59,499 nt of DNA from assembly GCA_001303185.1 (NCBI GenBank), contig LJNP01000002.1, positions 1-59,499 of the forward strand. Reading direction: 5' to 3'. Below the pieces are notes generated by a model that saw only the letters and a list, made by a program, of their open reading frames with translations, was not told where the DNA came from and ran no database searches. Source of the stretch: Parcubacteria bacterium SG8_24 (lineage in GTDB: Bacteria; Patescibacteriota; Patescibacteriia; SG8-24). A program made the position numbers and the translations under genes. This document shows, in pieces, positions 40,735 through 56,344 of this stretch; positions within the stretch are counted from its first letter, which is position 1, and each line of letters starts with the position of its first letter.

Positions 40735-40762
40735 ATTATATTGCCCTTCGGCCGAAAAGCAA
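40735..40762 (-). promoter_or_regulatory. Sigma70-like valS promoter
   Basis: Minus strand TTGCTT-16 nt-TATAAT, 27 nt upstream of the valS ATG. Confidence 0.6.
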
Positions 40763-40800
40763 CCGCCGGAGCGGGCCAGGGTCGTGAACGATCCGCCTGA

Positions 40801-40829
40801 TTGACCGGACCGGAACCCTGCGTTAACTT
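40801..40829 (+). promoter_or_regulatory. Sigma70-like promoter, divergent from valS
   Basis: TTGACC-17 nt-TAACTT, about 50 nt upstream of ATG 40883. Confidence 0.5.
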
Positions 40830-40882
40830 GGTAAGGCTCCTTTCAACCTCGTGGGCCACATCGTGCATTGCAGGAGGATGCG

Positions 40883-41350: not shown

Positions 41351-41352
41351 AT

Positions 41353-41378
41353 AATCCGCTTGAACAAGCGGATTTTTC
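41353..41378 (+). terminator. Rho-independent terminator
   Basis: AATCCGCTT-GAAC-AAGCGGATT followed by TTTTCG. Confidence 0.85.
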
Positions 41379-41452
41379 GTCCGGACTGACTTACCCTCAT
41401 TTAAGCTGAAAATGTCATCCTATCTTGACGTTTTAGGCCCAACCGAGGGGAT

Positions 41453-41481
41453 TTGACAAGTACGACGGCCCACGATAAGGT
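41453..41481 (+). promoter_or_regulatory. Sigma70-like promoter of the DHH-family gene
   Basis: TTGACA-17 nt-TAAGGT, 30 nt upstream of ATG 41511. Confidence 0.55.
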
Positions 41482-41510
41482 ATCCCATTCCCGAAAAAGT
41501 CAGTCAGGCT

Positions 41511-42731
41511 ATGGCCCGGAAGATGTCCCAACAATTCATGGAGGCCCTGAACGGCAAGAACCACGTCCTGATAACTACCCGCAAGGACTGGACGGTGGAC
41601 GGGGTGGCTACCGCACTGGCGATCAAGTCCGTACTGGAGAGGCGCCGAACGAACGTCGATGTGATCATCGACGGTTTTTCTCCCGGGCCGACACTGTCCT
41701 TCCTTGAAGGGATCGACACGATACGCCCGGCCTTCGGCCAGCTCCAGAAATTCGTCATCTCGCTCGACGTCTCCAAGAGCAAGCTCGACGAGCTGTCCTA
41801 TGACGTGAAGGAGGGTCGCCTCAACATCTACGTCACGCCCAAGGAGGGCCGTTTCCGGGACAAGGACGTCTCGACCGCGGCCTCGGAATTCAAATACGAC
41901 CTGATCGTCACCGTGGATACGCCAGATCACGATTCGTTAGGAAGGCTATTCTCGGAGCACACCGACCTATTCCACCAGCTGCCGGTCATCAACATCGACC
42001 ATGACACCTCGAACGAACAGTACGGCAACCTGAACCTGACCGACATCACGGCGACCTCCTGCGCCGAAGTGGTCCACGGCATCTTCCGCGAGACGCCGGA
42101 GAACACGCTCGACGAGCGGGTGGCCACGGCGCTGCTCACCGGCATCATCGCCAAGACGCGCAGCTTCAAGTCGCCGAACGTCACGCCCCGTACCCTTGAT
42201 GCCGCTTCGGTCCTGGTGGCCGCCGGCGCCCGGCGGGAAGAGATCGTCCAGCAGCTCTACCGGACCAGATCCCTGGCGACGCTGAAACTGTGGGGGCGGG
42301 CGCTGGCCCGGCTGAAACATGACCCGGAGACCCGGACCGTCTGGACCCTGCTGCTGCGCCAGGATTTCGTCCATGCCGGCGCCAACGAGGAATTCCTGCC
42401 GGAGGTCATCCATGAGCTGATCGTGAACGCGCCGGAAGCCGAGATCGTCAGTCTCATCTACGAACAGGAATCGGCCCAGGAGACCGGGAAGGTGTCCGGC
42501 GTCTGCGCCCTGGTCACCTCGGAAAGACATGCCGATGCCCTCGGCCTGGTCTCTTCCCTGCGGCCGGAAGGCGACCGTCGTCTGGCCCGGGTCTGCTTCC
42601 CCGGAGTGAAGATAATGGAGGCGGAAAAGGCGGTGATCGGCTCGATCCGGGCCTCGCTCGGTAAGGGTCCTCATCCGACCTGGCCGCTGGTCGCCGAAGA
42701 AGCCTCATCGGCCCGGCCGACCGGTTCCTGA
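41511..42731 (+). CDS. DHH/DHHA1-family phosphoesterase homologue (NrnA-like) with degenerate catalytic motifs
   Basis: NrnA-like layout: HVLITTRKDWTVDGVATALAI, LIVTVDTPD, VINIDHDTSNEQYG. The DHH triad reads DHD, motif I lacks the DGD, and I find no GGGH in the C-terminal domain. Confidence 0.6.
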   Translation: MARKMSQQFMEALNGKNHVLITTRKDWTVDGVATALAIKSVLERRRTNVDVIIDGFSPGPTLSFLEGIDTIRPAFGQLQKFVISLDVSKSKLDELSYDVKEGRLNIYVTPKEGRFRDKDVSTAASEFKYDLIVTVDTPDHDSLGRLFSEHTDLFHQLPVINIDHDTSNEQYGNLNLTDITATSCAEVVHGIFRETPENTLDERVATALLTGIIAKTRSFKSPNVTPRTLDAASVLVAAGARREEIVQQLYRTRSLATLKLWGRALARLKHDPETRTVWTLLLRQDFVHAGANEEFLPEVIHELIVNAPEAEIVSLIYEQESAQETGKVSGVCALVTSERHADALGLVSSLRPEGDRRLARVCFPGVKIMEAEKAVIGSIRASLGKGPHPTWPLVAEEASSARPTGS

Positions 42732-42775
42732 CCTTGATTTTCCCGCCAAACCGTCCTATGATGTGACGGAACCGC

Positions 42776-42852
42776 GGGCGTGTAGCTCAGTTGGTTAGAG
42801 CGTTACGTTGACATCGTAAAGGTCAGTGGTTCGACTCCACTCACGCCCACCA
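42776..42852 (+). tRNA. tRNA-Val (anticodon GAC), CCA encoded
   Basis: GGGCGTGTAGCTCAGTTGGTTAGAGCGTTACGTTGACATCGTAAAGGTCAGTGGTTCGACTCCACTCACGCCCACCA. Anticodon loop TTGACAT, T-loop TTCGACT. Confidence 0.95.
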
Positions 42853-42856
42853 AAAA

Positions 42857-42885
42857 GGCGCCAGCGCAAGCTGGTGCCTTTTTTT
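42857..42885 (+). terminator. Rho-independent terminator after tRNA-Val
   Basis: GGCGCCAGC-GCAA-GCTGGTGCC followed by TTTTTTT. Confidence 0.9.
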
Positions 42886-42903
42886 GCGAAAGGATTTGGC
42901 CAT

Positions 42904-42937
42904 AAAAAAACCCGCTTCGTGAAACTCACGGAGCGGG
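42904..42937 (-). terminator. Rho-independent terminator ending the nine-gene cluster
   Basis: Minus strand CCCGCTCCGTG-AGTTT-CACGAAGCGGG followed by TTTTTTT, 6 nt after the AAA+ stop. Confidence 0.9.
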
Positions 42938-42943
42938 TGAAGT

Positions 42944-44902
42944 TCAGCGTATGCCTTCAGCCTCGAGCTGCCGCACCTCTTCAAGCCATCGGTCGCGGTC
43001 AGCGTCAGTCATCCGCGGATCGATCACAACCATGTTCTTGCGGTCGGCTTCAGTGTACGGCCGATCCGGCAGCAGGCTGCGACGCGTGCAGTTCAGCAGC
43101 GCCTGCAACGTCTGATAGCGCCGGGTCTCGGAGATCGACGGCGGGATGATGTCCCGGGCGACCTCCAGGGCCTGTTCCGGACTGAGCTGGCCTTCACCGG
43201 CCTCGGCCCGCAGCTCCCCGCGGAGCAGGGCGAAGCTGGCCGCCGAGTAGCCGCGGGTGAGCTTCTCTAACTCCTCGCGGTACCCCTCCAGGCTCCCGGA
43301 GACGGTGCCTTGGAGCGTCCAGGCGATGAATTCGTCACGGTCCTCCCCTTCCGGGTCGAGTACCGGGATGATCAGGTCGCCGACGCGTCCCGGACGAAGC
43401 ATGTCCGGCGGCAACAGGTGTACCCGGGCCGTCATCAGCAGCCAGAGTATCCGCCCTTTCAGTCTCGGATCGGACATCATAGCCAGCATCTGTCCGGTGA
43501 CCCGACGCTCGGTGGAGTGCGGTTCGCCGGAAACGTCGGAGAACGACGTGTCGGCCTCGTCCACGAAGATCAGCGCCTTGGACAGTGCCTCGAGCACCCG
43601 TCGCAGCCGTTCCAGGATGAGATCGGTCTCACCGAACCACTTGCTGCGGATACCCTTGAGCACCAGGACCGGCATGCCGAGCTCCGCGGCCACGGCCTCG
43701 AAAATGTAGGTCTTACCCACACCGAGCGGTCCGCAGACGATGGCTCCGGACAGGGCGCCCCGGCCCGAGGCGCGAAACCGCGGGATGAGCCGTTCTCCGA
43801 TGAACGTCTTCAGCTTCCGGTTGCCGACCAGGTCCTCCAGGCGGTGCGCCGGCTTCTTGAATTGGACGACTTCTTCGCCCAATTGGGACTTGATGAAGGC
43901 TTCCACCTTGTCCACCACCTCTTCCGAGGTAAGCCGTCCGCCCTGATGGGCCGCGCCCTTGAGCAGCTGGAAAAGCGCGTGTACCGAGAGTCCGGCCGTC
44001 CACTTCACCAGGTCGGCCCCGCCTTCCAGGGTCGTCGGCGGCCGTTCCGGACCGCCGGACAGGAGATGCCGGCGGTCGAACCAGGCGATGCAGTGACGAC
44101 GCTGTTCCTCGTCCGGCGAGGGGATGTCGACCCTCAGCATCTGGGGCAGTTTCGACACCCGCTGGTTGACCAGGTTCCGGGACTCCGAGATGAGCACGAC
44201 GATGTCGCCGCCGCTCATGAAGCCCGGATCCGACAGCCAGTCGCGGCAGATGGCCACGCGGTGCCGGTCGGCCTCGGAGAGCCGGCTGATCTCCCCTTCG
44301 GGGATGATCATATCGGCCCCCTCGATGACGATAATCAGGTGCTCCGGCAGGAGCGGTACGCCATCGCCGTCCTCGGCCCGGGAACAGAGGCACATCTGTC
44401 TCAGGGCCTCGAGAGCCAGACTCGGCTTACCGGCCGCTTCCGTCAGCAAACGGTCGAACTGCGTGCCGAGTTCCTTGAGCCTGGCCGCCGCCTCGTCCTT
44501 CCACGAGGAACTATGGGCCGGGTCGAGACCGCTGCGGTACCTGACCCAGGCCTCCTTGACCTTGTCACGTTGCGCCTGGTCGGCGAACTTCAGCGGACTG
44601 TTCATCTGGTACATGACCAGGATCCGGTCGTCGAGATGCCACTTGGCCCTCAGGTACTCGGCCAGAGGGACATAGTCACCCCTGAACCCGTTGACCTCGG
44701 GAGCGAAGAACAGGTCGTGGATATTGCCGGTCAGCATCAGCGAACGGGACTGGCCCGAGTTGAGGATGCGGGCGGCCCGACGCCGGAACCCGTAATCGGG
44801 ATCCGGACCGATCGCCTTCTCCCGGACTGCGGACCAGTTCGTCACCACTTCACCCTTCTCGGGCACCTGATGTTCTTTCCGGAGATTGATGTGCGGACTC
44901 AT
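42944..44902 (-). CDS. Tandem AAA+ ATPase: degenerate N-terminal module plus classical-clade AAA module
   Basis: C-terminal module has Walker A GPLGVGKT, Walker B LIFVDEAD and second region of homology LRPGRVGDLIIPVLDPEGEDR. The N-terminal ~370 aa keeps an AAA-like layout without a P-loop (SRSLMLTGNIHDLFF; LIIVIEGADMIIPEG; VVLISESRNL...LRVDIPSPDEEQRR). The start overlaps the ABC ATPase stop as ATGA. Confidence 0.85.
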   Translation of the reverse strand: MSPHINLRKEHQVPEKGEVVTNWSAVREKAIGPDPDYGFRRRAARILNSGQSRSLMLTGNIHDLFFAPEVNGFRGDYVPLAEYLRAKWHLDDRILVMYQMNSPLKFADQAQRDKVKEAWVRYRSGLDPAHSSSWKDEAAARLKELGTQFDRLLTEAAGKPSLALEALRQMCLCSRAEDGDGVPLLPEHLIIVIEGADMIIPEGEISRLSEADRHRVAICRDWLSDPGFMSGGDIVVLISESRNLVNQRVSKLPQMLRVDIPSPDEEQRRHCIAWFDRRHLLSGGPERPPTTLEGGADLVKWTAGLSVHALFQLLKGAAHQGGRLTSEEVVDKVEAFIKSQLGEEVVQFKKPAHRLEDLVGNRKLKTFIGERLIPRFRASGRGALSGAIVCGPLGVGKTYIFEAVAAELGMPVLVLKGIRSKWFGETDLILERLRRVLEALSKALIFVDEADTSFSDVSGEPHSTERRVTGQMLAMMSDPRLKGRILWLLMTARVHLLPPDMLRPGRVGDLIIPVLDPEGEDRDEFIAWTLQGTVSGSLEGYREELEKLTRGYSAASFALLRGELRAEAGEGQLSPEQALEVARDIIPPSISETRRYQTLQALLNCTRRSLLPDRPYTEADRKNMVVIDPRMTDADRDRWLEEVRQLEAEGIR

Positions 44903-45891
44903 GCTAGCACCCCCTCGGCCCGACCGTCGGCGACCTTCTTCCAGAAGAGGTCGTGTTCCGCCGGATCGGTCCGCGCTTCCGGATCGAAGACGACCCGCCG
45001 GATCGTCTCCCGCTGCTCACGGAGCCTCTCGAAATCCCGCACCTGGTCCAGACCGTGCACCGGAGCGGTGTCGTCGTAGACTACGGTGGCACCGGGGGGT
45101 CGCCGGATGCCGTAATCTTCCCAGTTCCAGTACTGGGAGAGTCCGACCACCCGGTCCCCGACGTAAAGGGCCTCGTTGAGCTCATGGGTGACCAGCAGCA
45201 TGGTGTAGGGTGGCTTCTCCCCGGCCTGTTTGGCCTTGAGGTTCTCCCCATACAGGGAGAGCAGCATGCGCTGCAGGTCCTCCCGGGTAGCCTCGTCGAG
45301 CGCCCCGAACGGCTCGTCCATCAGCATCACCTCGGGCCTCATGATCATCGCCTGAGCGATGGCCACGCGCTGGCACATGCCGCCGGACAGCTCATGGGGG
45401 TACTTCCTGAGAGCGTCCTGGAGTCCGACCCGCACCAGCATCTCCTCCGCGGCGCGCAGGTGACGCCGGCGCAACTGACGCCAGGCGAAGGGACGGAACG
45501 TCCGGAAAGGGATGCTCGTCTCATCGAGCATCGGCCCGAAAGCCACGTTCTGCTGGGCCGTCAGAAAGGGGAATAGCGAGTAGCGCTGGTAGACCATGCC
45601 CCGATCGCGACCCGGAGAGCGTACCACTTGGACGCCCGATCCGTTGCCCGAGTGCATGGCGATGTGGCCTTCGCTGGGCGGATGGGTACCGACGATCGCC
45701 CTGAGCAAGGTTGACTTGCCACAACCGCTCGGACCGACCAGGGCCACGATCTGACCACGGCCGATCCGCAGGTTGATGTCGTGCAATACCTTCTTGGCGC
45801 CGAAACGGTGATGAAGGTTGATGCACTGGAGGACGATGTCGTGCCGCTGGACAGCCGCCGCGGCCCCGACGGTTCCGGTTGCCGAGTTCAT
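44899..45891 (-). CDS. ABC transporter ATP-binding protein (NitT/TauT-type)
   Basis: Walker A GPSGCGKST, MVYQRYSLFPFLTAQQNVAFG, signature LSGGMCQRVAIA, Walker B VMLMDEPF. GGAGG-6 nt-ATG at 45891 overlaps the permease stop as ATGA. Confidence 0.9.
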   Translation of the reverse strand: MNSATGTVGAAAAVQRHDIVLQCINLHHRFGAKKVLHDINLRIGRGQIVALVGPSGCGKSTLLRAIVGTHPPSEGHIAMHSGNGSGVQVVRSPGRDRGMVYQRYSLFPFLTAQQNVAFGPMLDETSIPFRTFRPFAWRQLRRRHLRAAEEMLVRVGLQDALRKYPHELSGGMCQRVAIAQAMIMRPEVMLMDEPFGALDEATREDLQRMLLSLYGENLKAKQAGEKPPYTMLLVTHELNEALYVGDRVVGLSQYWNWEDYGIRRPPGATVVYDDTAPVHGLDQVRDFERLREQRETIRRVVFDPEARTDPAEHDLFWKKVADGRAEGVLA

Positions 45892-46703
45892 GACGACCTC
45901 CTTCCTCCGTCGTGCCAACGGCAGACGAGTCGCTGCAGCTGCTTCATGCCGACGTTCATCAGGAACCCGAACATCATCAGGTAGAAGAGATAGGGGTAGA
46001 CCACCCCCATGTCCAACAGCCGCGACAGGAGCCTGATCCGGTAACCGAACCCGACGTCCCCGACCACCATCTCGGCGGCGATCAGGAAGACCATGGCCGG
46101 CCCGAACTGAAGACGCACGGCATCGATCAGTTTGGGCAGCATATGCCGGACGATCACGTTCCAGACCACTTCGGCATGCGACGCGCCGAGGGTGTAGGCC
46201 TTGTACAGCAGCTCTTCAGGGACGTCCCGGACCGACAGATGGACGGTCTGGGCCAGGGTCGGCAACACGCCGAAGGCGATCATGGCGACATACATCTCGG
46301 TGTCCGTGCCCACGAGCACGAAGAACACCGCCAGCATCGCCGTCGGCGGCACCTGGGCGAACAGGGACAGGGGCGGCACGAGCAGCGCCTCCACTGTCGC
46401 CGAACAGCCCATGAGTATGCCGAGGAAGACCGCTCCCAGGACGCCGCACAGCAGCCCCAGGAAGAGGCGCGACAGCGTCGCCTTGGAATCGACGACGACC
46501 CAGCGTTCTCCCGAACGGGGATGCGGCTGGACCGCCTTGACCACCCCCTCCTTGAGCTGGCTCCAGGAGGGTATCGTGGTGTCTTCAGGGTTCTCGATAT
46601 GCTGCCGGTGCGACAGATAGGTGTATCCGCCAAGCAGCAATCCGACCGCCAGCAACCCCAGGACCACCCGGGGCCACTTCCTTCTGAAAGGTTGTCTGAT
46701 CAC
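45888..46703 (-). CDS. ABC transporter permease (NitT/TauT-type)
   Basis: Six TM spans and a binding-protein-dependent permease core (LFLGLLCGVLGAVFLGILMG...TLAQTVHLSVRDVPEELLYKAYTLGAS). The AAGGAGG-6 nt-GTG start at 46703 is preferred over the track's 47006, which overlaps the SBP gene. Confidence 0.85.
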   Translation of the reverse strand: MIRQPFRRKWPRVVLGLLAVGLLLGGYTYLSHRQHIENPEDTTIPSWSQLKEGVVKAVQPHPRSGERWVVVDSKATLSRLFLGLLCGVLGAVFLGILMGCSATVEALLVPPLSLFAQVPPTAMLAVFFVLVGTDTEMYVAMIAFGVLPTLAQTVHLSVRDVPEELLYKAYTLGASHAEVVWNVIVRHMLPKLIDAVRLQFGPAMVFLIAAEMVVGDVGFGYRIRLLSRLLDMGVVYPYLFYLMMFGFLMNVGMKQLQRLVCRWHDGGRRSS

Positions 46704-46826
46704 GACGAACCTCCTTTTCGAAACGTCCGGAAACTCACCAGATTGTCGACTATACGCTTCTTTTTCGTATGTAACGAACGGTTCTCCTCCTTTCTCGGGA
46801 TCCCCAGACGGTCCTGAGGGGCTCGA

Positions 46827-46869
46827 GAAAAGAGACGGCCGGAGGGTCGAAGTTTGACCCTCCGGCCGT
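46827..46869 (-). terminator. Strong intra-operon stem-loop/attenuator between the SBP and permease genes
   Basis: Minus strand ACGGCCGGAGGGTC-AAACTTC-GACCCTCCGGCCGT (14-bp perfect stem) followed by CTCTTTTCTCG. Confidence 0.7.
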
Positions 46870-46896
46870 GGTCGGAAGACGGGACGCCGATGCCCG

Positions 46897-47958
46897 TCAG
46901 TCGCCGTTACGCTTCTTGACCGCCTGCATGTAGCTGGGGTCGAAGCGCAGTGCCGCGGTGCCGCCGGCGCCGTAGGAGACGCTGGGCTTCTTGGGCACGA
47001 TGTCATGACTGACGCAGAACTGCGTCACCGTCCTCATCGTCTGGACGAGCGAGTCACCGGTGAAGAGGGCGATGCCCTGCTCCGGAGTGCTGTAGAAACG
47101 CGTCTGCTGGACGACCTTGCGCATCGACTGCAGCCCCAGGTTGGAGAACTTCTCCCCGATGGCGATGAGCGTGTCGTCCGCCGTCGCCGGATCGGTCATG
47201 CGTTGGTTGATGGCGTAGAAGGTGTCGATCACCGCCTTGGCGAAGCGCTTGCCGCCGGGCTTGTCGAGTGACTTCTTCGACATCACGATCATGTCGATGA
47301 TCTCACCGGGGATGGAAGTGCTGTCGAACAGCACGCGCGTGTCCTTGCGCTTCTCCAGCGTGTCCAGCACGAAGGGGTTCCAGACGGCGATGGCGTCGTA
47401 GCCCCGACGTTTCTGCTGCATGGCCAGGGCGGCGGCCTGCGGGTCCATGTTGGTGAAGGTGTAGTCAGTCTCCTTCTCGCCGAGCTTCTGCAGGTTGCGC
47501 ACGAACATGTACTCGCTGACCGTCTTGGCCAGCCCATACACCTTCTTGCCCTTCAGCTGCGTGACGCTGGTGATGTCCTTGGGGACGATCAGGGCGTCGG
47601 CGCCGAAGCTGGTCGAGGTCGGGAGAATGGCCACGGTCGGCCGGGTGAGCGCCGGATTCAGCGAATCCATGTTGGTCAGCGCGGCCGCGTCGACGGCACC
47701 CGACCCGTACATGGTGATGCACGAATCGTAATCCGCCTCGCGGAGCACGATGTCCACGTTCCACTTCTTCTCGATGGGCCCGAGCTTGCCCTTGTGGCCG
47801 TCGATCAGCTTGACCTCATGGGCTACGCCGAAGACGCTCCACGACGGGTACTCGCTCCAGGCGAGCGAGAACGAGGGCGGGTCGGCCAGGGCCTGGACCG
47901 GCATCAGGATCACGGCGATGGTGCCGAGGCACCACAGGATCCGATTGAGATGCGACAT
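46897..47958 (-). CDS. ABC transporter substrate-binding protein (NMT1-like, NitT/TauT family)
   Basis: Signal peptide ILWCLGTIAVILMPVQALA. FSLAWSEYPSWSVFGVAHE...ADYDSCITMYGSGAVDAAALTNMDSL resembles, from memory, the urea-carboxylase-associated SBP subfamily. Confidence 0.8.
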   Translation of the reverse strand: MSHLNRILWCLGTIAVILMPVQALADPPSFSLAWSEYPSWSVFGVAHEVKLIDGHKGKLGPIEKKWNVDIVLREADYDSCITMYGSGAVDAAALTNMDSLNPALTRPTVAILPTSTSFGADALIVPKDITSVTQLKGKKVYGLAKTVSEYMFVRNLQKLGEKETDYTFTNMDPQAAALAMQQKRRGYDAIAVWNPFVLDTLEKRKDTRVLFDSTSIPGEIIDMIVMSKKSLDKPGGKRFAKAVIDTFYAINQRMTDPATADDTLIAIGEKFSNLGLQSMRKVVQQTRFYSTPEQGIALFTGDSLVQTMRTVTQFCVSHDIVPKKPSVSYGAGGTAALRFDPSYMQAVKKRNGD

Positions 47959-48092
47959 GACTTGCCTCCTTCATCTTTCCGTTTCTGGTTCTTGCTTCCG
48001 TCATACTGCAACCGTCGTCGACCGTCGGCGGGGACACCCCGCTAGGACGCGGAATGCCCCGCGGACGGAAGACTGACGGAAGAGTCCCGATG

Positions 48093-48923
48093 TCACTCCG
48101 GCAAGGGCGTGCCCTTGGCGGCCTCAGTGCCGGTGGCCTCGACGGTCGCCGGCGACTCCTCGGTCAGGCCGAGCTCGCTGAAGAACTCGCTGTCGGCCTC
48201 GCTGGACTCGGCATAGGCCATGTACTCGGCCTCCTGAGCCTTGGTGTCGGTGCCGGCCAGGGTCTCGGCGACCCGGGCCCGCGCCTTGGCCTTCTGCCGC
48301 AGGTCACGCATCTGTTGCAGCTGCTCCGAGGTGGTGTCCTCGGCGATGCCGGAGAGCATGTCGGCGACGCGCTGCTCCTCCTGGGCGGTGATGATGTCGG
48401 CCACCGCTTCGCCCTTCTCGGCCTTGATCTTGTCGAGGTCGCGCTTCAGCGAAAGCATGTTGCGCTTGTGCTCCTCGATCTTGCCGGTACCGGCCTGGAT
48501 CTCGGCCTCGAGATCCTGGATGCGCGCCTCCTTCTCGCCGAGGGTCGACGAGAAGTCCTTGAAGGCGCCCTGATGCTTCATCAGCTCGGAATCGGCCTTG
48601 ATCTGCTCCGGGGTCAGGCCCTGTGCCTGCAGCTGCTTGAGCCGCTGCTTGGCCTTGGCCAAGGCTCCGGCCTTGAGACCCTCGAGCCGACCGGTCTCCT
48701 CGGTGAGCTGCTTGAGCGTCGCCTTGCGCTTCTCCTGGATGGTGACGATCTCCGCCACCGCCCGCGAGTAGTCCTGGATCCGGCCGGTCTTCTGACGGAT
48801 GATGTCGTCGTAGGTCGCGTTCACCACGTGCGGATTCAACGAGAGCGCCTCGCGCGCCTTGTCGATCCTTCCGGTCAGGAAGTACCCGACCGCTTTCAGG
48901 AATCTCCAGATTGCTCGGAACAT
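48093..48923 (-). CDS. PspA/IM30 (ESCRT-III superfamily)-like coiled-coil protein
   Basis: AGGAGG-5 nt-ATG. An amphipathic N-terminus MFRAIWRFLKAVGYF, then a continuous heptad-rich helical sequence laid out like PspA (IDKAREALS..P.....YDDIIRQ...IQDY..AVAEIVTIQEKRKATLKQL...), and an acidic C-terminal tail. 276 aa. Confidence 0.6.
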   Translation of the reverse strand: MFRAIWRFLKAVGYFLTGRIDKAREALSLNPHVVNATYDDIIRQKTGRIQDYSRAVAEIVTIQEKRKATLKQLTEETGRLEGLKAGALAKAKQRLKQLQAQGLTPEQIKADSELMKHQGAFKDFSSTLGEKEARIQDLEAEIQAGTGKIEEHKRNMLSLKRDLDKIKAEKGEAVADIITAQEEQRVADMLSGIAEDTTSEQLQQMRDLRQKAKARARVAETLAGTDTKAQEAEYMAYAESSEADSEFFSELGLTEESPATVEATGTEAAKGTPLPE

Positions 48924-48945
48924 CTTGTCCTCCTTTGCGGCCGGT

Positions 48946-49707
48946 CTACCGTCCTTCGACGGCCTGCCGCTCGTATTCGGAAATGTCCACGTTCCACGAT
49001 GAGATCTGTTCTTCGACCTTTCGGGCCACCTCCAGGTTCCGGTCCAGCTCGTCCCGCAGTTCCTGCAGGGCCGAGCTGTCGCTGTCCTTCTCCACGCTGA
49101 GCGCCTGCACCTGGACGAGTATGCCGCCGAGGCGTTCGACGCTCTTGCCGACTTCGGCGATCAGCCTTTCCCGCTTGTCCAGAATCGACCGTCGCGCTTC
49201 CGGTACGTTCAGCCTGCCGGCGGTCTCCGCCAGCCTGACCGAACGCTCCAGCGCCCGGACGCACCCCTGAAACAGTCGGTCCACGCCGGAGATGATGTCG
49301 AACGACGACAGGGTACCCACGTCGGCGGACCAGGAGTCGTCCTCCTTGAACGCCCGAGTGAGTTCCCGCAGGTCGCCGAGCAGCCTCTCCGTCCGCGGAT
49401 CGCCATCGCCCTGGAGGCGGGTTCCGAGATCGTCGAGCGCCCGCTGGCGCCCCCTCTCCGTCTCCCGCTCCAGCTCATCCAGCACTTCCCGGCCGACACG
49501 TTCGCTTCCGGTCAGGAACCGGGTCACGCATGACCCGATACCCGCCAGGACACCCGTCAGGCCGACGAACGCCAGCGGGCCGCTGGCGAAGCCGAAGGCC
49601 CACTGGGCGATCAGTAGCGTCGCACCTCCCAGAAGGGGGATGAGCGTCAGCGGGCTGGCGAGCAGGCGAATCATGAATTTCCTCTTGAACTCTCGCCTCT
49701 CCAGCAT
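48946..49707 (-). CDS. Two-TM membrane protein with cytoplasmic coiled-coil domain (candidate PspA partner)
   Basis: AGGAGG RBS. LLASPLTLIPLLGGATLLIAQWAFGF and LAFVGLTGVLAGIGSCV spans, followed by about 180 aa of charged helical sequence. Confidence 0.6.
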   Translation of the reverse strand: MLERREFKRKFMIRLLASPLTLIPLLGGATLLIAQWAFGFASGPLAFVGLTGVLAGIGSCVTRFLTGSERVGREVLDELERETERGRQRALDDLGTRLQGDGDPRTERLLGDLRELTRAFKEDDSWSADVGTLSSFDIISGVDRLFQGCVRALERSVRLAETAGRLNVPEARRSILDKRERLIAEVGKSVERLGGILVQVQALSVEKDSDSSALQELRDELDRNLEVARKVEEQISSWNVDISEYERQAVEGR

Positions 49708-49779
49708 GTTCCCTCCTTCAGGAAGAGGCGTCCCCGCGCCGGCCGACCGGCCGGCACGGGAGACGTCCTTTGAGTCCTA

Positions 49780-51357
49780 TCAATAGGGCAGGTTACCGAG
49801 GATGAACGAGACCGATTGCGACCCCCCTCCGTTGCCGGATGGGTCGGCCACTTCGGCCCGCAGGCGTGTCGTCGGTACGCCTCTCGAAGTGAGGTGCCGC
49901 ACCGCCGCCTCCGCCCTGGACTTGGCCAGCTCGCGGTTGGCCTGCGGATCGCCCTCGGCCCGGGCGTGACCGATCACCTTGAGATAGGAGTTCGGCCACG
50001 ATTCGAGCTGCTGCGACAGTCGGTCGAGATCCCTCTGGCTCCGCACGCTGATACGGGCGTTGCCCCGACTGAAGGCGATGGGGTCGATACGCATATTGCC
50101 GACGGCGACGATCCGGTCCCACTGCTCATCGGAGAGAGCGGGCAGGGCCGCCGCGCCGCGCACGGCGTCGAGGTCCGAAGTCCCCGGACCCATGCCTTGG
50201 ATGACATTGACCTTCTTTCCGGGGTGGAAGTTCTCCGCCAGCAAATCCCTGAGGGTGCCGTCGTAGAACAGCGTACTGGCCTTGCCCTCCAACGGGTCGC
50301 GGTCGAGCGCTCCCGTCTTGACGAGCACGTCAGCGATGTTCCCGATGATGTCCTCGAGATGCTGGACGCCTTTGGTCGGCTGCAAGCCGAGGTGGGCGTA
50401 ATTCTCCAGCGTGTTCTTCCACCGGATGCCGTCGACCAGCTTCCGGGCCTGAGCCTCGGAAAGCGTGTCCGAACCGGTCCGTTTGGCGTCATCCATGACC
50501 AGCTTGACCATCCCGTCGGCCTGACGGCCGTAAGAGAAAGCGGCCCGCTGGTATGATTCGACCACTGCCCGGACCAGTTCCGGGTGCTTCTGGAGGAACT
50601 TCCGGTTGGCGACCAGGACGTCGACGATATAACCCGACAGCTTGGAACTGTCCAGGAGTACATGAGCACCCGGCTCGTCGAGCGCCTTGGAGACATAGGG
50701 TTCCCAGAGCACGAAGGCCCGTTTTCCTTTGTCCCCTTTCGCCTTGCGGAATTCCTTGTAGACGGCCTCGGCGCCGTCCGCCTCCTCCCACCACTTCTCG
50801 GGCAGGCTGGGCAGACTGAACGTGGCGACCACCACCCGCGCCAGGAACTCGCTGGGCGAGCTCGGCGTGAGCACGATTCGGGCATCCGGACTGTCGAGGT
50901 CCTGGATGCTGCCGACCGCGCCCTGGTAGGCGACGATCGCGTCGGCGCCGTTGGTCTCATCGATGACCATGACGATGCTGGCCGGGTACTCACCCATCTT
51001 CGCTCCCGCGTAGATGAGCGAATCCACCGTGAACACCGCCAGGTCGACATCCTCGTCACGTAGGGCCTTGAGCCGGGCCTCGTAATCGGCCCGGTCATCC
51101 TCGATCTCGAGTCTGATGCCCTGCGACTTCAGTTCGCCGGCCAGGGCCGGAGAACGGAGGATGGCGTATCCGGAGAACGAATCGGCCGCGACCTTGACCA
51201 CGTGCTTGTACTGGCTCGAGGACCCAGTCGCTTCCGTCAGCTCCTCCTGGAAGTAGGGATGGATCAGGTAGCGATAGGCGACGCCCAGGATGCCGATGAT
51301 CAGGATCCAGGCGCCGGCCACCAGGATGGTGCGCGTCGCCTTCTTGGTCCCGCTCAT
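49780..51357 (-). CDS. N-terminally anchored SBP-like (NMT1-like) domain fused to an OmpA-like peptidoglycan-binding domain
   Basis: ATG 51357 overlaps the VWA stop (ATGA). Anchor ILVAGAWILIIGILGVAY. SBP-like DSFSGYAILRS...ADYEARLKALRDEDVDLAVFTVDSLI...VIDETNGADAIVAY. C-terminal OmpA-like IAFSRGNARISVRSQRDLDRLSQQLESWPNSYLKVIGHARAEGDPQANRELAKSRAEAAVRHL. Confidence 0.75.
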   Translation of the reverse strand: MSGTKKATRTILVAGAWILIIGILGVAYRYLIHPYFQEELTEATGSSSQYKHVVKVAADSFSGYAILRSPALAGELKSQGIRLEIEDDRADYEARLKALRDEDVDLAVFTVDSLIYAGAKMGEYPASIVMVIDETNGADAIVAYQGAVGSIQDLDSPDARIVLTPSSPSEFLARVVVATFSLPSLPEKWWEEADGAEAVYKEFRKAKGDKGKRAFVLWEPYVSKALDEPGAHVLLDSSKLSGYIVDVLVANRKFLQKHPELVRAVVESYQRAAFSYGRQADGMVKLVMDDAKRTGSDTLSEAQARKLVDGIRWKNTLENYAHLGLQPTKGVQHLEDIIGNIADVLVKTGALDRDPLEGKASTLFYDGTLRDLLAENFHPGKKVNVIQGMGPGTSDLDAVRGAAALPALSDEQWDRIVAVGNMRIDPIAFSRGNARISVRSQRDLDRLSQQLESWPNSYLKVIGHARAEGDPQANRELAKSRAEAAVRHLTSRGVPTTRLRAEVADPSGNGGGSQSVSFILGNLPY

Positions 51358-52280
51358 CGGCGTGTCCCCCGAGCCGACCGCCTCCGCCTCATGAGCAGGA
51401 GGACGGTCGTCGAGAGGAGCGCCAGCAGCGCCCACCACCCGGCTTGACCCTGGTGGTGATGGCAACCGCAGCCGCTCCCGCCCGCAGACGGGGTTGACGC
51501 GGCCTGGCCGGACGGCGCCTGACCCAGGGACGTGTCCGCATACGGACGCGGTTTGGCCCCGATGGGATGGTTGCCGGTCTCAGCCAGGGTCTGGATGGCC
51601 GCCAGACAGACGTCGGTGGACAGCGGAGCGATGACGCTGAAGACGTCATCACCCACGGTACCGCCGTCTTCCTGCTCGGTCACCTCGGCGAAAACCTGGG
51701 AGATCGTACTCTCCAGTGAGGCCGGGTCCTTCGCGTTGCGGTAGGTGTGGGCCCACTGGGCCAGCGTGTGCTGCTGGTCCATGTCCACGCCGATCACGTC
51801 GAGCGTGATGCCGCGCGCGACTACCTCTGGGGTCCAGCGCTCCATTTCCGAGCGCTCGCCGTAGTCGGCCTCGCCGTCGGTAACCACCAGCAGCCGGTAG
51901 CTGCCGTAGTTGAGCTGCTTGGTCCGCTGATCGAGCAGACGGTCGGCCCCTTTCTTGATGAAAGTGGCCAGCGGCGTGCCGCCACCGGAATCGATGGCGT
52001 CGATGGCGCTGTTGAGCCTGCCCCGGTCCAGTGGGCCGAGGTCATAGACCCAGCCCGCGTGGGGGAAGACCAGGATGCCGACGTTGACGTCGCCCGAGAG
52101 CTGGCCAAGCACCTTCTTGAGGGCATCCCGGGCCGCCTGCATCTTCCAGCCGTCCATCGAACCGGAAGCGTCGACCACCACCACGATGTTGGCGCGGTCG
52201 AGCTCCGGCTGGGCGGCCTGGAGCGGCGCGGCGGACAGGATGAGGAGGAACGCTGTGTATGTCGCAATCAGCTGGTTCAT
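51354..52280 (-). CDS. Secreted VWA-domain protein with Cys-motif/TM/Arg-cluster C-terminal tail
   Basis: Signal peptide FLLILSAAPLQAAQP. MIDAS motif VVVDASGSMDG. C-terminus GGSGCGCHHHQGQAGWWALLALLSTTVLLLMRRRRSARGTRR. Confidence 0.85.
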   Translation of the reverse strand: MNQLIATYTAFLLILSAAPLQAAQPELDRANIVVVVDASGSMDGWKMQAARDALKKVLGQLSGDVNVGILVFPHAGWVYDLGPLDRGRLNSAIDAIDSGGGTPLATFIKKGADRLLDQRTKQLNYGSYRLLVVTDGEADYGERSEMERWTPEVVARGITLDVIGVDMDQQHTLAQWAHTYRNAKDPASLESTISQVFAEVTEQEDGGTVGDDVFSVIAPLSTDVCLAAIQTLAETGNHPIGAKPRPYADTSLGQAPSGQAASTPSAGGSGCGCHHHQGQAGWWALLALLSTTVLLLMRRRRSARGTRR

Positions 52281-52293
52281 GGCTTCCTCCTTC

Positions 52294-54138
52294 CTAGAAG
52301 TCGAAGTCGCTGGCTTTGATGGCTTCCGCGGAGACGCGCACGATACGGAACTCGACGCGCATGTTCCGCTTGGCCTCGCCCATGTTGGCGGGCTTGGCGA
52401 TGAGCGGTTCGCGGATGCCCACGCCCTGCGGCTGGATCTGGCTCTCGTCGATCGTCACCTTCTTATGCCGCGCGTACTCGATGAGCGACTCGCGGACCGC
52501 CCTGGCCCGAATCCGGGACAGGTTGGCCGCAGCCTGCATCGTGTCGCGCGGGTTATGCTCGGTGACGCCGTCGAAGGCGCCGGACTGGATCAGCTTGATG
52601 ACGCCCTCCGTGCTGTTCAGATCGAGCTGACGGCCGTTGTAGTAGTAAACGTACTGGCCGCCGGAGCCCGACTGCTTCAGGGTGCCCTTACGCAGGCCGG
52701 CCCGGACCATCTCGACCAGCGTCTTGGTCGGGTCGGAATGGCCGCGGATGGCGATGACCGCCCCCCCGTACATCTGGGAGAGCTCGATCACCTTGTCGAA
52801 GTCCTTGCGGTACTTGGACGCGGAGAAATCGTTCTGGTTCGGCTCGAAGTTGATGGTGAACGAGTAGATGGTGTTGTCGTCCAGCACGCCGCCGGAGCTC
52901 AACTCCTCGATCTCGCTCTGCACCGCCTCCGGCCGGAACTTCTGCGATCTGGCCGCGCCGACGTGCGCCAGGTAACCGGTGTACGCCGAGGAGTTCCAGT
53001 CGATGCCGGTCGCCTTGAGGTCGCCCTTGCTCCGGGCGAAGCCCCAGTCCACCGCCATCTGCAGCGACGACTTCTTGAAGGCGTCGAAACCGCGCAGGTT
53101 CGACGAGTCGGTGAAGAAGGACACGTTGCCGGCGTGGCCGACGAACTTGCAGTCCGAGATCAGGCCGTGCGCCTCCTCCAGGGTGGGGATGGTGCCCCGG
53201 CCGTAGATCTCCTGGGTCAGCTTGAGCAGCTTCTCGAACTGCCGCGAGCCGCGGCTCTCGTACTGCTTCTTCTGCTCAACCACCTCCTCCGCGGCCTTCA
53301 GGTATCCGGCCACGAACTTGGTGACGAGGTCGCGGTGGTTGTCGTAGAAGTCCTGACGCACCACGTAGACGTCGGCGATGGAGCGGGAGAGCTCGGCCGT
53401 CGAGACGAGCACGTGCGCGCCCTTGACCGTGCCTTCTGCGCCGCTGCCGACGTTCTGGGCCCCGCCGGTCAGCCCGATCATGTCGGGCGTGATGACGAAC
53501 GCCGCGTCGATGCGCTTGTTCTTCTTGAACATCTCCGAGGGACAGTTGGCCGTACCCGTGAGGTCATCGGCCCAGATGAGTTTGACGTCATTCAGGCCGA
53601 GTCCCGCGGTCTTCAGCACGTCATAGAGCATGCCGACATGCGGCCCGCCCTTCTGCAGGACAATCGTCTTGCCCTTGAGATCGGCGAGCGTCCTGATGTT
53701 CCGCCGGGCGACCATGTGATCGCCCTGCGACCAGGTGAGCTGCAGGATCACCACACCCTTGGTGCGGGGATCCCGGTCGATCATCTCGGCGGCGAGTCCG
53801 ATCATGCGGAAGGTACCCCGCAGGAACGGGCTCTTACCGGACAGGTAGTCGCGGACCTGCTGATGGAAGTCGTCCCCGGCCTGGAGCTTCAGGTTCAGCC
53901 CCTGCTGGTGGAAGATGGAGCCGTTCTTGGTGGTCAGGCCCCCGTTGGCGTAGAAGGTGGCCATGTCGCCGCCCCAGGTGATGAACGGTACCTGGAGGGG
54001 CGAGGTCGACTTGACCGGACCCACCTTGACGCGACCGACCTGGTCAGAGAATCTCTGCGCCGCGGTGGCATCCGCGGTGAAGAGCATGGCCAGGGCGGCC
54101 AGGAATCCTGCTGCCGTGAGAAAACCTTTCCGTTTCAT
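52294..54138 (-). CDS. Secreted SBP-like domain fused to an OmpA-like peptidoglycan-binding domain
   Basis: GGAGG-7 nt-ATG at 54138. Signal peptide MKRKGFLTAAGFLAALAMLFTADATAAQ. SBP-like N-terminal two-thirds. C-terminal OmpA-like FEPNQNDFSASKYRKDFDKVIELSQMYGGAVIAIRGHSDP...LSRIRARAVRESL...NMRVEFRIV. Confidence 0.75.
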   Translation of the reverse strand: MKRKGFLTAAGFLAALAMLFTADATAAQRFSDQVGRVKVGPVKSTSPLQVPFITWGGDMATFYANGGLTTKNGSIFHQQGLNLKLQAGDDFHQQVRDYLSGKSPFLRGTFRMIGLAAEMIDRDPRTKGVVILQLTWSQGDHMVARRNIRTLADLKGKTIVLQKGGPHVGMLYDVLKTAGLGLNDVKLIWADDLTGTANCPSEMFKKNKRIDAAFVITPDMIGLTGGAQNVGSGAEGTVKGAHVLVSTAELSRSIADVYVVRQDFYDNHRDLVTKFVAGYLKAAEEVVEQKKQYESRGSRQFEKLLKLTQEIYGRGTIPTLEEAHGLISDCKFVGHAGNVSFFTDSSNLRGFDAFKKSSLQMAVDWGFARSKGDLKATGIDWNSSAYTGYLAHVGAARSQKFRPEAVQSEIEELSSGGVLDDNTIYSFTINFEPNQNDFSASKYRKDFDKVIELSQMYGGAVIAIRGHSDPTKTLVEMVRAGLRKGTLKQSGSGGQYVYYYNGRQLDLNSTEGVIKLIQSGAFDGVTEHNPRDTMQAAANLSRIRARAVRESLIEYARHKKVTIDESQIQPQGVGIREPLIAKPANMGEAKRNMRVEFRIVRVSAEAIKASDFDF

Positions 54139-54358
54139 CGTCAGTCCTCCATGTGCCCCAAAGGGCGTCTGTTTCTGCTTCACGGATCGTTTATCCTGTC
54201 ATGTTCCCGGCGAGACAGCCGAATCGGTATCCCGACACCTCCTTTTCATATCCATCGTCTCTTGGAGACTCCTTTGTTCTTTGTGACTCGCTTGTATTGT
54301 AATGACCGGTCAGGACCGGCCAAAAATAGCCGAAAAACGTCCCCGGACCTGACGCGGG

Positions 54359-54387
54359 AACATAGCAGGAATCCGCTGTCGTGTCAA
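54359..54387 (-). promoter_or_regulatory. Sigma70-like promoter heading the nine-gene cluster
   Basis: Minus strand AT-rich ACATAATAAATCA, then TTGACA-17 nt-TATGTT, about 215 nt upstream of ATG 54138. Confidence 0.7.
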
Positions 54388-54510
54388 TGATTTATTATGT
54401 ATCGGGGCGCTCGTCTGATTCCGGGCGATATCTGAGCTTAAACGGGGCTGCTGTCCGGGCCGTTTCCGCGCGGTATCCGGACTGACGGTCAGTCGGGCCC
54501 CCTGACCACG

Positions 54511-54538
54511 AAAAAACCGCCCGATGGGCCTGGGCGGC
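54511..54538 (-). terminator. Rho-independent terminator after the NYN gene
   Basis: Minus strand CCGCCC-9 nt loop-GGGCGG followed by TTTTTTCG. Confidence 0.8.
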
Positions 54539-54547
54539 TTAAAACGA

Positions 54548-55090
54548 TCAGATCGGTCCCGACTTGATCAGCGGGGCCGGATCGCCGTTGGACGGCAGCA
54601 GGTACCTGTTCCGGTCCTGCGAAAGGTCGACGTACCGGTCAGCCGCCTTCATCAGGCGATAGGCGGTGGTTCCCCGAAAGGCCAGTACTTCGACCCGCCG
54701 TCCGTTCGACTTGAGATATTCGGCCAGCTCCACGAAATCTCCGTCACCGGAGACGAGCACCACGACGTCGAGACGCCGGTCGACGGAGAAACGGATGGCG
54801 TCGACGGTGATGCCGACATCCCAGTTGGCCTTCTTCGTGCCGTCCGGGAAGACCTGCAGCTCCCGTTCCTTGGTCTCGATGCCGATGTGCTTCAGGGCAT
54901 CGAAGAAAGACTGTTCGTTGCCGGTGGCACGTACCACGTAGGCGATGGCCTGGACCAGCCGACGATCGGCGACGGCGGTCTCCAGGATGGTCTCGAAGTT
55001 CACCTTCCGGCCGAACAGGTTCTTGGCCGAATAGTACATGTTCTGCGTATCGATAAACACGCCGACCCGATGGTCCTTACGCAGGATCAC
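54548..55090 (-). CDS. NYN-domain (LabA-like) putative RNase
   Basis: VGVFIDTQNMYYSA, AIAYVV and VVVLVSGDGDFVELAEYLKSNGRRVEVLAF. AGGAG-7 nt-GTG start. Confidence 0.8.
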   Translation of the reverse strand: MILRKDHRVGVFIDTQNMYYSAKNLFGRKVNFETILETAVADRRLVQAIAYVVRATGNEQSFFDALKHIGIETKERELQVFPDGTKKANWDVGITVDAIRFSVDRRLDVVVLVSGDGDFVELAEYLKSNGRRVEVLAFRGTTAYRLMKAADRYVDLSQDRNRYLLPSNGDPAPLIKSGPI

Positions 55091-55343
55091 GCTCCTGCTC
55101 CTTGGTGCTGCCGATGTACGCTCGAATCCTCGGTCTTGGGAAAACTGTCACCTCCTGCGAGAGGTCGGTTACTCCGCTTCATCTCTTATCACCCCTTTTG
55201 CGTCGTCCTTTTCCTAATGTGCCTCGAGAGATTGGATCGACACCCCCTTTCCTTCACACACCTCGCGATCTCTGACATTTTGCGTATTTCAATGAGCCTG
55301 CTGAGGTCGGTCCGGCGCGTCGGGCGGACCGGCTCGATTCGGC

Positions 55344-55372
55344 AATCTATCAGTTTTCCGGACGGCTGTCAA
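55344..55372 (-). promoter_or_regulatory. Sigma70-like promoter of the NYN gene
   Basis: Minus strand TTGACA-17 nt-TAGATT, about 250 nt upstream of the GTG start. Confidence 0.7.
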
Positions 55373-55412
55373 CGGTGGGCATCACGGCAGCCTGTCCGGC
55401 GTGACCGGCACC

Positions 55413-55435
55413 GAAAAGACCGGGCTGACCCGGCC
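55413..55435 (-). terminator. Rho-independent terminator after the 93-aa paralogue
   Basis: Minus strand GGCCGGG-TCAG-CCCGGTC followed by TTTTCGG. Confidence 0.7.
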
Positions 55436-55460
55436 TTGGATATTTCCGATCGGTCTGCCG

Positions 55461-55742
55461 TCATTCGCTGTCGTCCCGCGGGATGAACACCGGCACGACC
55501 TTCCGAAGGACCGTATGCGAGGATCGCTTGATCTCCCGATACAGCCTGGACTGGAGGGCCTTGATCCTGTCCCGATAGACCTCCCAAAGACGGCGCCGCA
55601 AGACCTGATCCTCGATCGGGACGGTCTTCAGGGCTTCCCTGAACCGGATATCCAGTTGGGTCTTCTCCTGCTCGTACTCCCTGGTATAGGTGTCGATCTC
55701 CTGGTCCAGCAGGGGGGTCTTGGTGACAGTCTCGAATGACAT
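55461..55742 (-). CDS. Hypothetical helical protein, paralogue family member 1 (93 aa)
   Basis: LLDQEIDTYTREYEQEKTQLDIRFREAL...RRLWEVYRDRIKALQSRLYREIKRSS aligns with the C-terminal half of 55912-56343. Confidence 0.65.
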   Translation of the reverse strand: MSFETVTKTPLLDQEIDTYTREYEQEKTQLDIRFREALKTVPIEDQVLRRRLWEVYRDRIKALQSRLYREIKRSSHTVLRKVVPVFIPRDDSE

Positions 55743-55762
55743 AAGGCTTTTTTCAACGGCAC

Positions 55763-55791
55763 ACTATAGCACCGTGCGGGCTCGATGTCAA
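55763..55791 (-). promoter_or_regulatory. Near-consensus sigma70 promoter of the 93-aa paralogue
   Basis: Minus strand TTGACA-17 nt-TATAGT, 20 nt upstream of the ATG. No SD. Confidence 0.75.
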
Positions 55792-55865
55792 GGGTGTGAA
55801 CGATACCTAAGGCGGCCGGACGAGGCAAGTCCGAAGCATCCACAGGACCGATTATCGCCACCGCG

Positions 55866-55886
55866 AAAAAACGGCCTGTCCGGCCG
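55866..55886 (-). terminator. Rho-independent terminator after the 143-aa paralogue
   Basis: Minus strand CGGCC-GGACA-GGCCG followed by TTTTTT. Confidence 0.65.
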
Positions 55887-55911
55887 ATCGTTACGGTATC
55901 GTACTCCACCC

Positions 55912-56343: not shown

Positions 56344-56344
56344 A

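Follow-up and report, generated by a model that had tools for sequence, protein, structure and literature searches.

A cluster of nine co-directional genes was identified on the minus strand, at positions 42904-54387, of a 59,499 nucleotide (nt) stretch of DNA from Parcubacteria bacterium SG8_24 (contig LJNP01000002.1, positions 1 to 59,499; the whole stretch is hereafter the window). The cluster is a real, conserved unit and not a chance adjacency, since the same nine genes were found in the same order and on the same strand at 40 of 53 informative loci from other genomes. It places a divergent member of the PspA/IM30 family, with a predicted ESCRT-III-type fold, in one gene string with a tandem AAA+ ATPase whose first AAA domain is degenerate, a set of envelope proteins and an ABC importer. 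The PspA-like protein and the ATPase also occur elsewhere as a stand-alone pair, and the PspA-like proteins of both arrangements end in the same C-terminal tail. We propose, with a probability of about 0.55, that the nine products form a single envelope-spanning system of three layers, in which the ATPase turns over the PspA-like protein by way of this tail.

The genes, designated g1 to g9 in the direction of transcription, are listed below. Domains were assigned by Pfam and NCBIfam scans and topology by hydropathy.

g1, 52294..54138, minus strand: signal peptide, NMT1/SsuA-type solute-binding domain and probable C-terminal OmpA-like domain with an insertion of about 65 amino acids (aa).
g2, 51354..52280, minus strand: periplasmic VWA protein with signal peptide, metal ion-dependent adhesion site (MIDAS) motif, low-complexity linker, C-terminal transmembrane (TM) helix and basic tail.
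g3, 49780..51357, minus strand: N-terminal TM anchor, NMT1-type solute-binding domain and OmpA-family peptidoglycan-binding domain.
g4, 48946..49707, minus strand: two-TM hairpin followed by a cytoplasmic helical domain of about 190 aa.
g5, 48093..48923, minus strand: divergent PspA/IM30 protein (ESCRT-III superfamily).
g6, 46897..47958, minus strand: free periplasmic solute-binding protein (SBP) of NitT/TauT (SsuA/TauA/NrtA-like) type, with signal peptide.
g7, 45888..46703, minus strand: ABC importer permease (BPD_transp_1), with a GTG start and an AAGGAGG site.
g8, 44899..45891, minus strand: ABC ATPase with a C-terminal extension of about 70 aa.
g9, 42944..44902, minus strand: tandem AAA+ protein with a degenerate first domain (D1) and a second (D2) with intact classical-clade motifs.

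An earlier reading of the letters alone, made before any database search (the sequence-only reading), had given the same nine genes, positions and order, all of which were reproduced on the minus strand. Its domain calls were confirmed by Pfam and NCBIfam, those of the OmpA-like domain of g1 and of g5 as PspA requiring family-level support. The open reading frames (ORFs) lie between a site resembling a promoter and a terminator with a U tail, with intergenic gaps of 13, 72, 22, 134 and 193 nt and ATGA start/stop overlaps at g2/g3, g7/g8 and g8/g9, exactly as had been read. A strong ribosome-binding site was said to precede every gene; strong GGAGG sites were found for seven of the nine, those of g3 and g9, which both start within ATGA overlaps, being weak.

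Conservation of the neighbourhood, which the sequence-only reading had set as a test of its proposal, was assessed by scanning a single genome for each species. Relatives of the AAA+ protein were present in 426 genomes, and 80 loci (numbered with the prefix L) were taken for comparison. Gene order was counted where 9.1 kb or more of sequence lay upstream of the AAA+ gene, as it did at 53 loci, and patterns were confirmed using family hidden Markov models. Besides the 40 complete clusters, seven loci encoded the PspA-AAA+ pair only, two g7 to g9 only and one the AAA+ protein only; one locus lacked g6 (L009), one lacked g1, which lay beyond the compared flank (L024), and one held g4 to g9 without g1 to g3 (L052). 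Full clusters were present in Verrucomicrobiota, Planctomycetota, Sumerlaeota, Acidobacteriota, Desulfobacterota and CSSED10-310, with identities to the window proteins ranging from approximately 31-47% for g4 to 56-71% for g6. Median spacing between genes across the syntenic loci was -28 to +50 nt, and -4 nt between g8 and g9. Flanking genes were kept at no more than six of the 40 loci. Because genes outside g1 to g9 are conserved only among close relatives, the cluster appears as a unit with sharp, conserved boundaries. The lack of synteny that would have told against the sequence-only reading was not observed. For the same reason, further conserved genes beyond the nine were rejected, with the exception of an optional tenth gene.

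This tenth gene lies directly 3' of the AAA+ gene at eight loci (L010:11837-12862, L048:11816-12856, L033:12019-12876 and L019:11791-14607; also L002, L008, L009 and L025) and is absent from the window. The records concerned are of Desulfobacterota, Acidobacteria, Planctomycetales/Planctomycetaceae and Sumerlaeota, with one unclassified bacterium. Its product of about 340 aa has no Pfam match and carries the motif CRWSRCLGCN (Cx4Cx2C), reminiscent of a radical-SAM-type cluster site. A complete nine-gene cluster was also present in a metagenome-assembled genome (MAG) labelled Candidatus Bathyarchaeia (L014, DATKVG010000055.1), at a level of identity like that of the bacterial loci; the contig may be bacterial and binned in error, or the cluster may have been transferred to an archaeon.

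Across all 80 loci the AAA+ gene adjoined an ABC gene at 60 and was paired with a PspA gene at 13; a further six were solo or otherwise arranged and one was cut by a contig end. The 13 pairs, which had no other cluster gene nearby where checked, reinforce the link between PspA and AAA+ that had been drawn from the window. The ATPases of these pairs share 66-80% identity with the closest relatives that they have in the set of 80 loci, and several of those relatives come from ABC-adjacent clusters.

The assignment of g5 was made because of Pfam matches within its family and its predicted fold, and not because of the score of the window protein itself. PF04012 was matched by 28 of 32 family members (best E value 9.2e-7), and some homologues are named PspA/IM30 in NCBI or JGI. 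A phmmer search of the Protein Data Bank (PDB) with the window protein returned four matches, all of them PspA/Vipp1, at E 0.2-0.27. An AlphaFold2 model built from a 32-sequence alignment (mean predicted local distance difference test score, pLDDT, 80.7) places helices at residues 2-28, 31-100, 112-190, 198-222 and 227-240, a predicted ESCRT-III-type topology of alpha0, a long alpha1/alpha2-3 hairpin, alpha4 and alpha5. The nine top Foldseek matches of this model in the PDB were all Vipp1/PspA, over approximately 220-250 columns at E 4e-4 to 2e-2. The family also has a conserved, amphipathic-looking N-terminal helix, MFxAIGRWxKAxGYLLTG. On this support, which is good but not overwhelming, g5 is accepted as a divergent PspA/IM30-family protein, as the sequence-only reading had supposed, along with the ESCRT-III-like fold that it expected.

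All 60 of the PspA-like proteins adjoining the AAA+ gene end in the motif EFDALIGL, a variable linker of about 20 residues that is predicted to be disordered, and a terminal LPE. The arrangement is common to the PspA-like proteins of the full clusters and of the pairs. The tails of ESCRT-III proteins engage Vps4 through MIT-interacting motifs (MIMs), and the EFDALIGL-LPE tail, MIM-like in its position, is by analogy a candidate handle for g9.

The tandem classical-clade AAA+ architecture proposed for g9 was borne out. The protein matched PF00004 at 69.1 bits, with NCBIfam matches to CDC48, PAN and CdvC. D2 has a Walker A motif (GPLGVGKT), a Walker B motif (FVDEAD), a pore loop (KWFG) and the arginines of RPGRVGD, which were invariant or nearly so in 15 homologues from several phyla that share 54-58% identity with the window protein; D2 is predicted to be an active domain of the classical clade. 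The N-terminal 300 or so residues are read as a dead AAA copy, D1, because they lack a P-loop (TGNIHD in its place) yet align colinearly with D2 over 173 columns (hhalign E 6e-4), covering the Walker B, sensor and lid regions. A comparison of the N-terminus with MIT-like domains had been suggested; Pfam detected no MIT domain in g9, and the region is a degenerate AAA domain instead. The top PDB matches were VAT, Cdc48/p97 and AFG2, Vps4 not being among the 60 best matches listed. The analogy with Vps4 that the sequence-only reading drew is thus retained as regards the shared clade, and fails as regards the MIT domain, the single cassette and the closest structural relatives. No DNA-binding domain was detected in g9 by Pfam or NCBIfam.

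The gene for g4 always lies directly upstream of g5 in nine-gene loci. Its family has 881 representatives in a library of 1.84 billion proteins and a DxDPR...L..LR signature. No Pfam match was obtained for g4 nor for sets of 12 and of 60 family members, Snf7/PspA scoring in 0 of the 60 diverse ones, and no ESCRT-III protein appeared among its PDB sequence-profile or fold matches. The AlphaFold2 model (pLDDT 74) retrieved generic helical bundles only in Foldseek. Comparison of the g4 and g5 families by hhalign gave a probability of 2%, and that of g4 with yeast Snf7 gave 0.2%, using an approximate Snf7 query. Homology of g4 to Snf7/ESCRT-III was not confirmed, the fold search, PDB profiles, Pfam and hhalign all being negative. 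Nor was similarity to PspB, PspC or LiaI detected in Pfam and NCBIfam scans. The protein is left as a family without an assigned function and is presumed to be the membrane partner of g5, because of its invariable position upstream and by analogy with LiaI-LiaH.

Four of the remaining products, g1, g2, g3 and g6, are placed outside the cytoplasmic membrane by hydropathy, with g2 and g3 anchored in it. The first, g1, matched PF09084 at E 4.8e-11 and has a hydrophobic N-terminus without cysteine; its orthologues are approximately 60% identical across the 40 loci. Its OmpA-like domain, as had been called, is probable: the match of 17.1 bits falls below the Pfam threshold of 27.2, and the C-terminal family profile nevertheless matches OmpA-like PDB domains (3td3, E 0.0015) in two segments flanking the insertion. 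In g3 the corresponding match to PF00691 was 42.4 bits (cut-off 27.2), that to PF09084 was 22.9 bits, and the TM segment spans residues 6-32. The VWA domain of g2 (PF00092, 51.8 bits; cut-off 23.8) has the MIDAS motif DASGS at residues 37-41. The C-terminus of g2 had been described as a cysteine motif, TM helix and arginine tail; the helix and basic tail are kept in 39 of 40 orthologues, while the cysteine motif is specific to the window protein. A known C-terminal sorting signal of the MYXO-CTERM-like kind was rejected on the same ground and for want of a significant NCBIfam match.

Together g6, g7 and g8 (SBP, BPD_transp_1 permease and ABC_tran ATPase) make up the full set of a type I NitT/TauT importer. 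TIGR03427 was matched by g6 at E 4.6e-46, under its cut-off, and SsuA_fam at 2.2e-17; g7 matched PF00528 at 56.2 bits, its top NCBIfam matches being TauC, SaoP and SsuC; and g8 matched PF00005 at 114.8 bits. No substrate could be assigned because all NCBIfam equivalog cut-offs were missed. The solute-binding domains of g1, g3 and g6 had been taken for distant paralogues, and profile alignment agrees (hhalign E 2.5e-9 for g3-g6, 6.5e-6 for g1-g3 and 2.4e-4 for g1-g6).

The system that we propose from these components would be arranged as follows. In the periplasm, the soluble g1 and the g3 protein, which has an inner-membrane anchor as well, would be fixed to peptidoglycan via their OmpA-like domains, with the membrane-anchored VWA protein g2, whose MIDAS is intact, beside them. 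In the transport layer, the g6-g7-g8 importer would bring in a small ligand, identical or related to that of the periplasmic proteins. At the cytoplasmic face, g5 would assemble on the inner membrane, recruited or nucleated by g4 as suggested by the analogy with LiaI-LiaH or PspBC-PspA. There g9 would engage the EFDALIGL...LPE tail of g5 and thread subunits through the D2 pore, bringing about remodelling or recycling in the way that Vps4 acts on ESCRT-III. The interactions between these proteins, the direction of information flow, the nature of the ligand and a role in maintaining or remodelling the membrane, coupled to transport, are all parts of the scheme that we infer. A bolder form of the proposal, in which g9 is a true Vps4 counterpart for a bacterial ESCRT-III, reading the tail and spending ATP on the turnover of PspA polymers, and the nine proteins couple wall-tethered capture of a ligand to an energy-driven reshaping or repair of the inner membrane where the transporter sits, is tentative and, in our judgement, less likely than not.

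Several points weigh against the proposed system. The window g5 itself has no PF04012 match at E<=1, the PspA/Vipp1 profile matches of its family in the PDB are weak (E 0.2-0.9), and the best Foldseek E value is only 4e-4, with SMC coiled coils close behind in the list. The role of g4 as a nucleator is an analogy, the protein showing no similarity to PspA or Snf7. No ligand could be assigned to the importer. Strong internal hairpins in the window, described below, could split the expression of sub-units. Two loci (L057 and L020) encode the permease, ABC ATPase and AAA+ protein without PspA, and the AAA+ gene stands alone within the examined flanks in five Pirellulales/Planctomycetales MAGs (L026, L037, L064, L068 and L079). 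At the loci lacking PspA the ATPase may have other or additional clients; in the solo MAGs the partner may be encoded elsewhere, or the client may be another. No experimental study of a PspA with a tandem AAA+ protein, or of any component, was found in the literature.

The main rival, which we consider improbable, is that the AAA+ protein has the transporter or other membrane proteins, and not PspA, as its main clients. It would extract, unfold or regulate the importer or its partners in quality control of the Cdc48, Msp1 or FtsH type, PspA only buffering the membrane stress to which the system gives rise. The 4-nt overlap of g8 and g9 in the window, matched by their median spacing across loci, and the predominance of ABC-AAA+ adjacency (60/80) are what such an arrangement would lead one to expect, as are the two PspA-less triads (L057, L020) and the best matches of D2, which are unfoldases of the Cdc48/VAT/AFG2 type; the C-terminal extension of g8 is also unexplained. 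It accounts poorly for the 13 loci at which the AAA+ protein is paired with PspA alone and no transporter is nearby, and for the invariant tail of the PspA-like proteins, for which recognition by a partner is the best explanation.

The two other rivals are less likely. One, which we regard as decidedly improbable, holds that the periplasmic proteins and ABC module form a sensor, the binding of ligand to the wall-tethered solute-binding domains or to the VWA protein being relayed via the permease and ATPase or via g4 and switching the assembly of PspA in envelope, osmotic or ionic stress. Three paralogous solute-binding domains in one cluster, two of them immobilised on peptidoglycan, would suit a sensor, as would tight co-inheritance with PspA, an effector of the stress type. 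However, g6-g7-g8 is a complete and ordinary type I importer without a signalling domain, no regulator is present among the cluster genes, and no precedent occurs among the NitT/TauT family matches found here. That the binding-protein set, PspA pair, importer and AAA+ protein are independent units held together by co-transfer only is very improbable: the modules do occur apart in some genomes (the dyads and triads, g4-g9 in L052, and L009 without g6), hairpins separate g3/g4, g5/g6 and g6/g7 in the window, and the GC content of the cluster, above that of its flanks, is compatible with block transfer, but an identical order in 40 of 53 genomes of at least six phyla, with proteins only 35-65% identical and unconserved flanks, would be difficult to keep up unless selection acted on the whole, and start/stop overlaps bind three of the junctions. 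A possible link between Ycf46 and bicarbonate transport was dropped, no supporting paper having been found.

Non-coding features of the cluster and its surroundings are as follows.

54359..54387, minus strand: candidate sigma-70-like promoter, TTGACA-17-TATGTT, with 10 of 12 consensus matches and TG before the -10 element; from a consensus scan alone.
54323-54296, minus strand: second, weaker promoter candidate from the consensus scan.
49708..49779, minus strand: hairpin in the g3-g4 spacer, -44.9 kcal/mol, z -4.05.
47959-48092, minus strand: hairpin fold of the whole g5-g6 spacer, -57.3 kcal/mol.
46835..46869, minus strand: 14-bp hairpin 3' of g6, -31.6 kcal/mol, z -6.3, followed by CUCUUUU.
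42904..42937, minus strand: predicted intrinsic terminator, a stem-loop of -18.8 kcal/mol, z -3.5, followed by U7.
42776-42852, plus strand: tRNA-Val, convergent with the cluster and beyond its terminator.

The promoter (as a consensus match, at 54387-54359), the terminator and the hairpin between g6 and g7 had all been picked out in the sequence-only reading. The three stable spacer hairpins divide the window cluster as g1-g3, g4-g5, g6 and g7-g9. Strong spacer hairpins are not general across the 40 syntenic loci, one following g6 at 11 of 39, and they may serve locally to adjust the ratios of expression or the stability of the mRNA. Rfam identified three tRNAs only in the window, with no match to a riboswitch or other known RNA in the spacers or in the leader of 220 nt. 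Within the leader, between the promoter-like site and g1, lies a possible upstream ORF of 18 codons (MDMKRRCRDTDSAVSPGT) at approximately 54199-54255 on the minus strand, preceded by an AAGGAG-like site.

The upstream neighbour of the cluster is an NYN-domain gene, followed by a hairpin and U-run that by eye resemble a terminator of its own. Other neighbours (YkuD, FG-GAP, DHH, valS and tyrS) are unrelated to the cluster. The GC content is 0.63-0.66 in the cluster (42000-54000) and approximately 0.59 in 40001-42000 and 54001-56000; this elevation, the tRNA-Val at the 3' end and the 50-65% identity across distant phyla suggest that the cluster was transferred as a block. Two further ORFs on the minus strand, at 55461-55742 (93 aa) and 55912-56379 (155 aa), have no Pfam match and look like tandem paralogues, with similar C-terminal segments (...EYEQEKTQLDIRFREAL...LQSRL and ...EYEKEKTVLDLRLRDDL...LQSRL). 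A single ORF of 3270 codons occupies positions 1891-11703 of the minus strand.

The sequence-only reading knew of no described system of this composition. One has in fact been predicted: Ravi et al. (mSystems 2024; bioRxiv 2020; PMC11237479) reported that bacterial PspA is sometimes encoded beside a protein with a pair of AAA+ domains, of which the N-terminal is inactive, listed operons of PspA, inactive-AAA/AAA, a membrane protein, an ABC ATPase/permease and PBPB-OmpA, and proposed ATP-dependent membrane remodelling tied to solute transport. Both the set of components and the hypothesis were thus already in print. The core idea is a rediscovery, and the window cluster is a fuller example of the predicted type, sharing with it PspA, the two-domain AAA+ protein with an inactive N-terminal copy, the ABC ATPase, the permease and PBPB+OmpA. 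Their example OGG56892.1 from Candidatus Handelsmanbacteria (PspA, PBPB+OmpA, TM(s), ABC-ATPase, TM+Snf7, inactive-AAA+AAA) differs in gene order, the nine-gene order being the commonest among the 80 loci compared here. Three proteins are additional in the window and in 40 other genomes, namely the VWA protein g2, a second protein of SBP-OmpA type and the free SBP g6; neither the VWA protein nor the fixed nine-gene architecture was found in the text or one supplement file of that paper. The Snf7 homology of their 'TM+Snf7' protein was not reproduced for g4, its possible counterpart.

The value of the window is limited in that the association had been predicted in print before and the contribution made here is sequence-based. 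To that prediction are added the fixed architecture, the VWA component and the tail motif (for which earlier mention was not sought in the literature), together with a list of genomes for testing that includes MAGs assigned to cultured Desulfobacterota species (L062 and L048, which bear the names Desulforapulum autotrophicum and Desulfosudis oleivorans). How bacterial relatives of ESCRT-III such as PspA and Vipp1 are disassembled or recycled is an open question, for which g9 is a concrete candidate ATPase: a dedicated classical AAA+ protein co-inherited with a clade of tailed PspA proteins, either as a two-gene pair, small enough for direct reconstitution, or as a nine-gene system. The latter form points to a connection, as yet unexplored, between the capture of solutes at the wall and the remodelling of the membrane. 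If the bolder form of the proposal is true, bacteria, notably those of the Planctomycetes-Verrucomicrobia-Chlamydiae (PVC) group, Desulfobacterota and Acidobacteriota, would possess an ESCRT-like cycle driven by ATP.

A 2025 review considered a Vps4-like ATPase to be apparently absent from bacteria. The present cluster resembles the ESCRT-III/Vps4 systems (CdvB/CdvC; Snf7/Vps4) in encoding an ESCRT-III-superfamily protein beside a classical-clade AAA+ protein, and in the motif that ends the flexible C-terminal tail of g5 in a MIM-like position. It differs in that g9 lacks the MIT domain of Vps4 and CdvC and has a dead D1 and a D2 instead of a single AAA cassette, in the best matches of g9 to Cdc48/VAT/AFG2 and not Vps4, and in that g5 belongs to the PspA/Vipp1 and not the Snf7 branch.

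Among the phage-shock-type systems, the liaI-liaH pair of Bacillus subtilis likewise has a small membrane protein gene directly before that of a PspA homologue, as g4 precedes g5, and the pspF-pspA arrangement of Escherichia coli (PspF-PspABC) likewise links an AAA+ gene to a PspA gene. PspF, however, is an NtrC-type enhancer-binding AAA+ protein with a helix-turn-helix domain that is inhibited by PspA (PMC11237479), whereas g9 is of the classical clade and has no detected DNA-binding domain. The g6-g7-g8 module is the standard set of the NitT/TauT importers (SsuABC, TauABC, NrtABCD, and the urea-carboxylase-associated SBP of TIGR03427), from which the cluster departs in its two extra paralogous solute-binding domains on OmpA-like anchors and its genetic linkage to PspA and an AAA+ protein. 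Lastly, Makarova and Koonin (2010; PMC2875224) predicted FtsZl1-vWA-OmpA operons for membrane remodelling. In these the polymer is a relative of tubulin/FtsZ, and neither an AAA+ protein of this kind nor an ABC importer is included, but by analogy they present the same pattern, in which a cytoplasmic polymer-former is co-encoded with secreted or membrane VWA proteins of intact MIDAS and peptidoglycan binders of the OmpA type.

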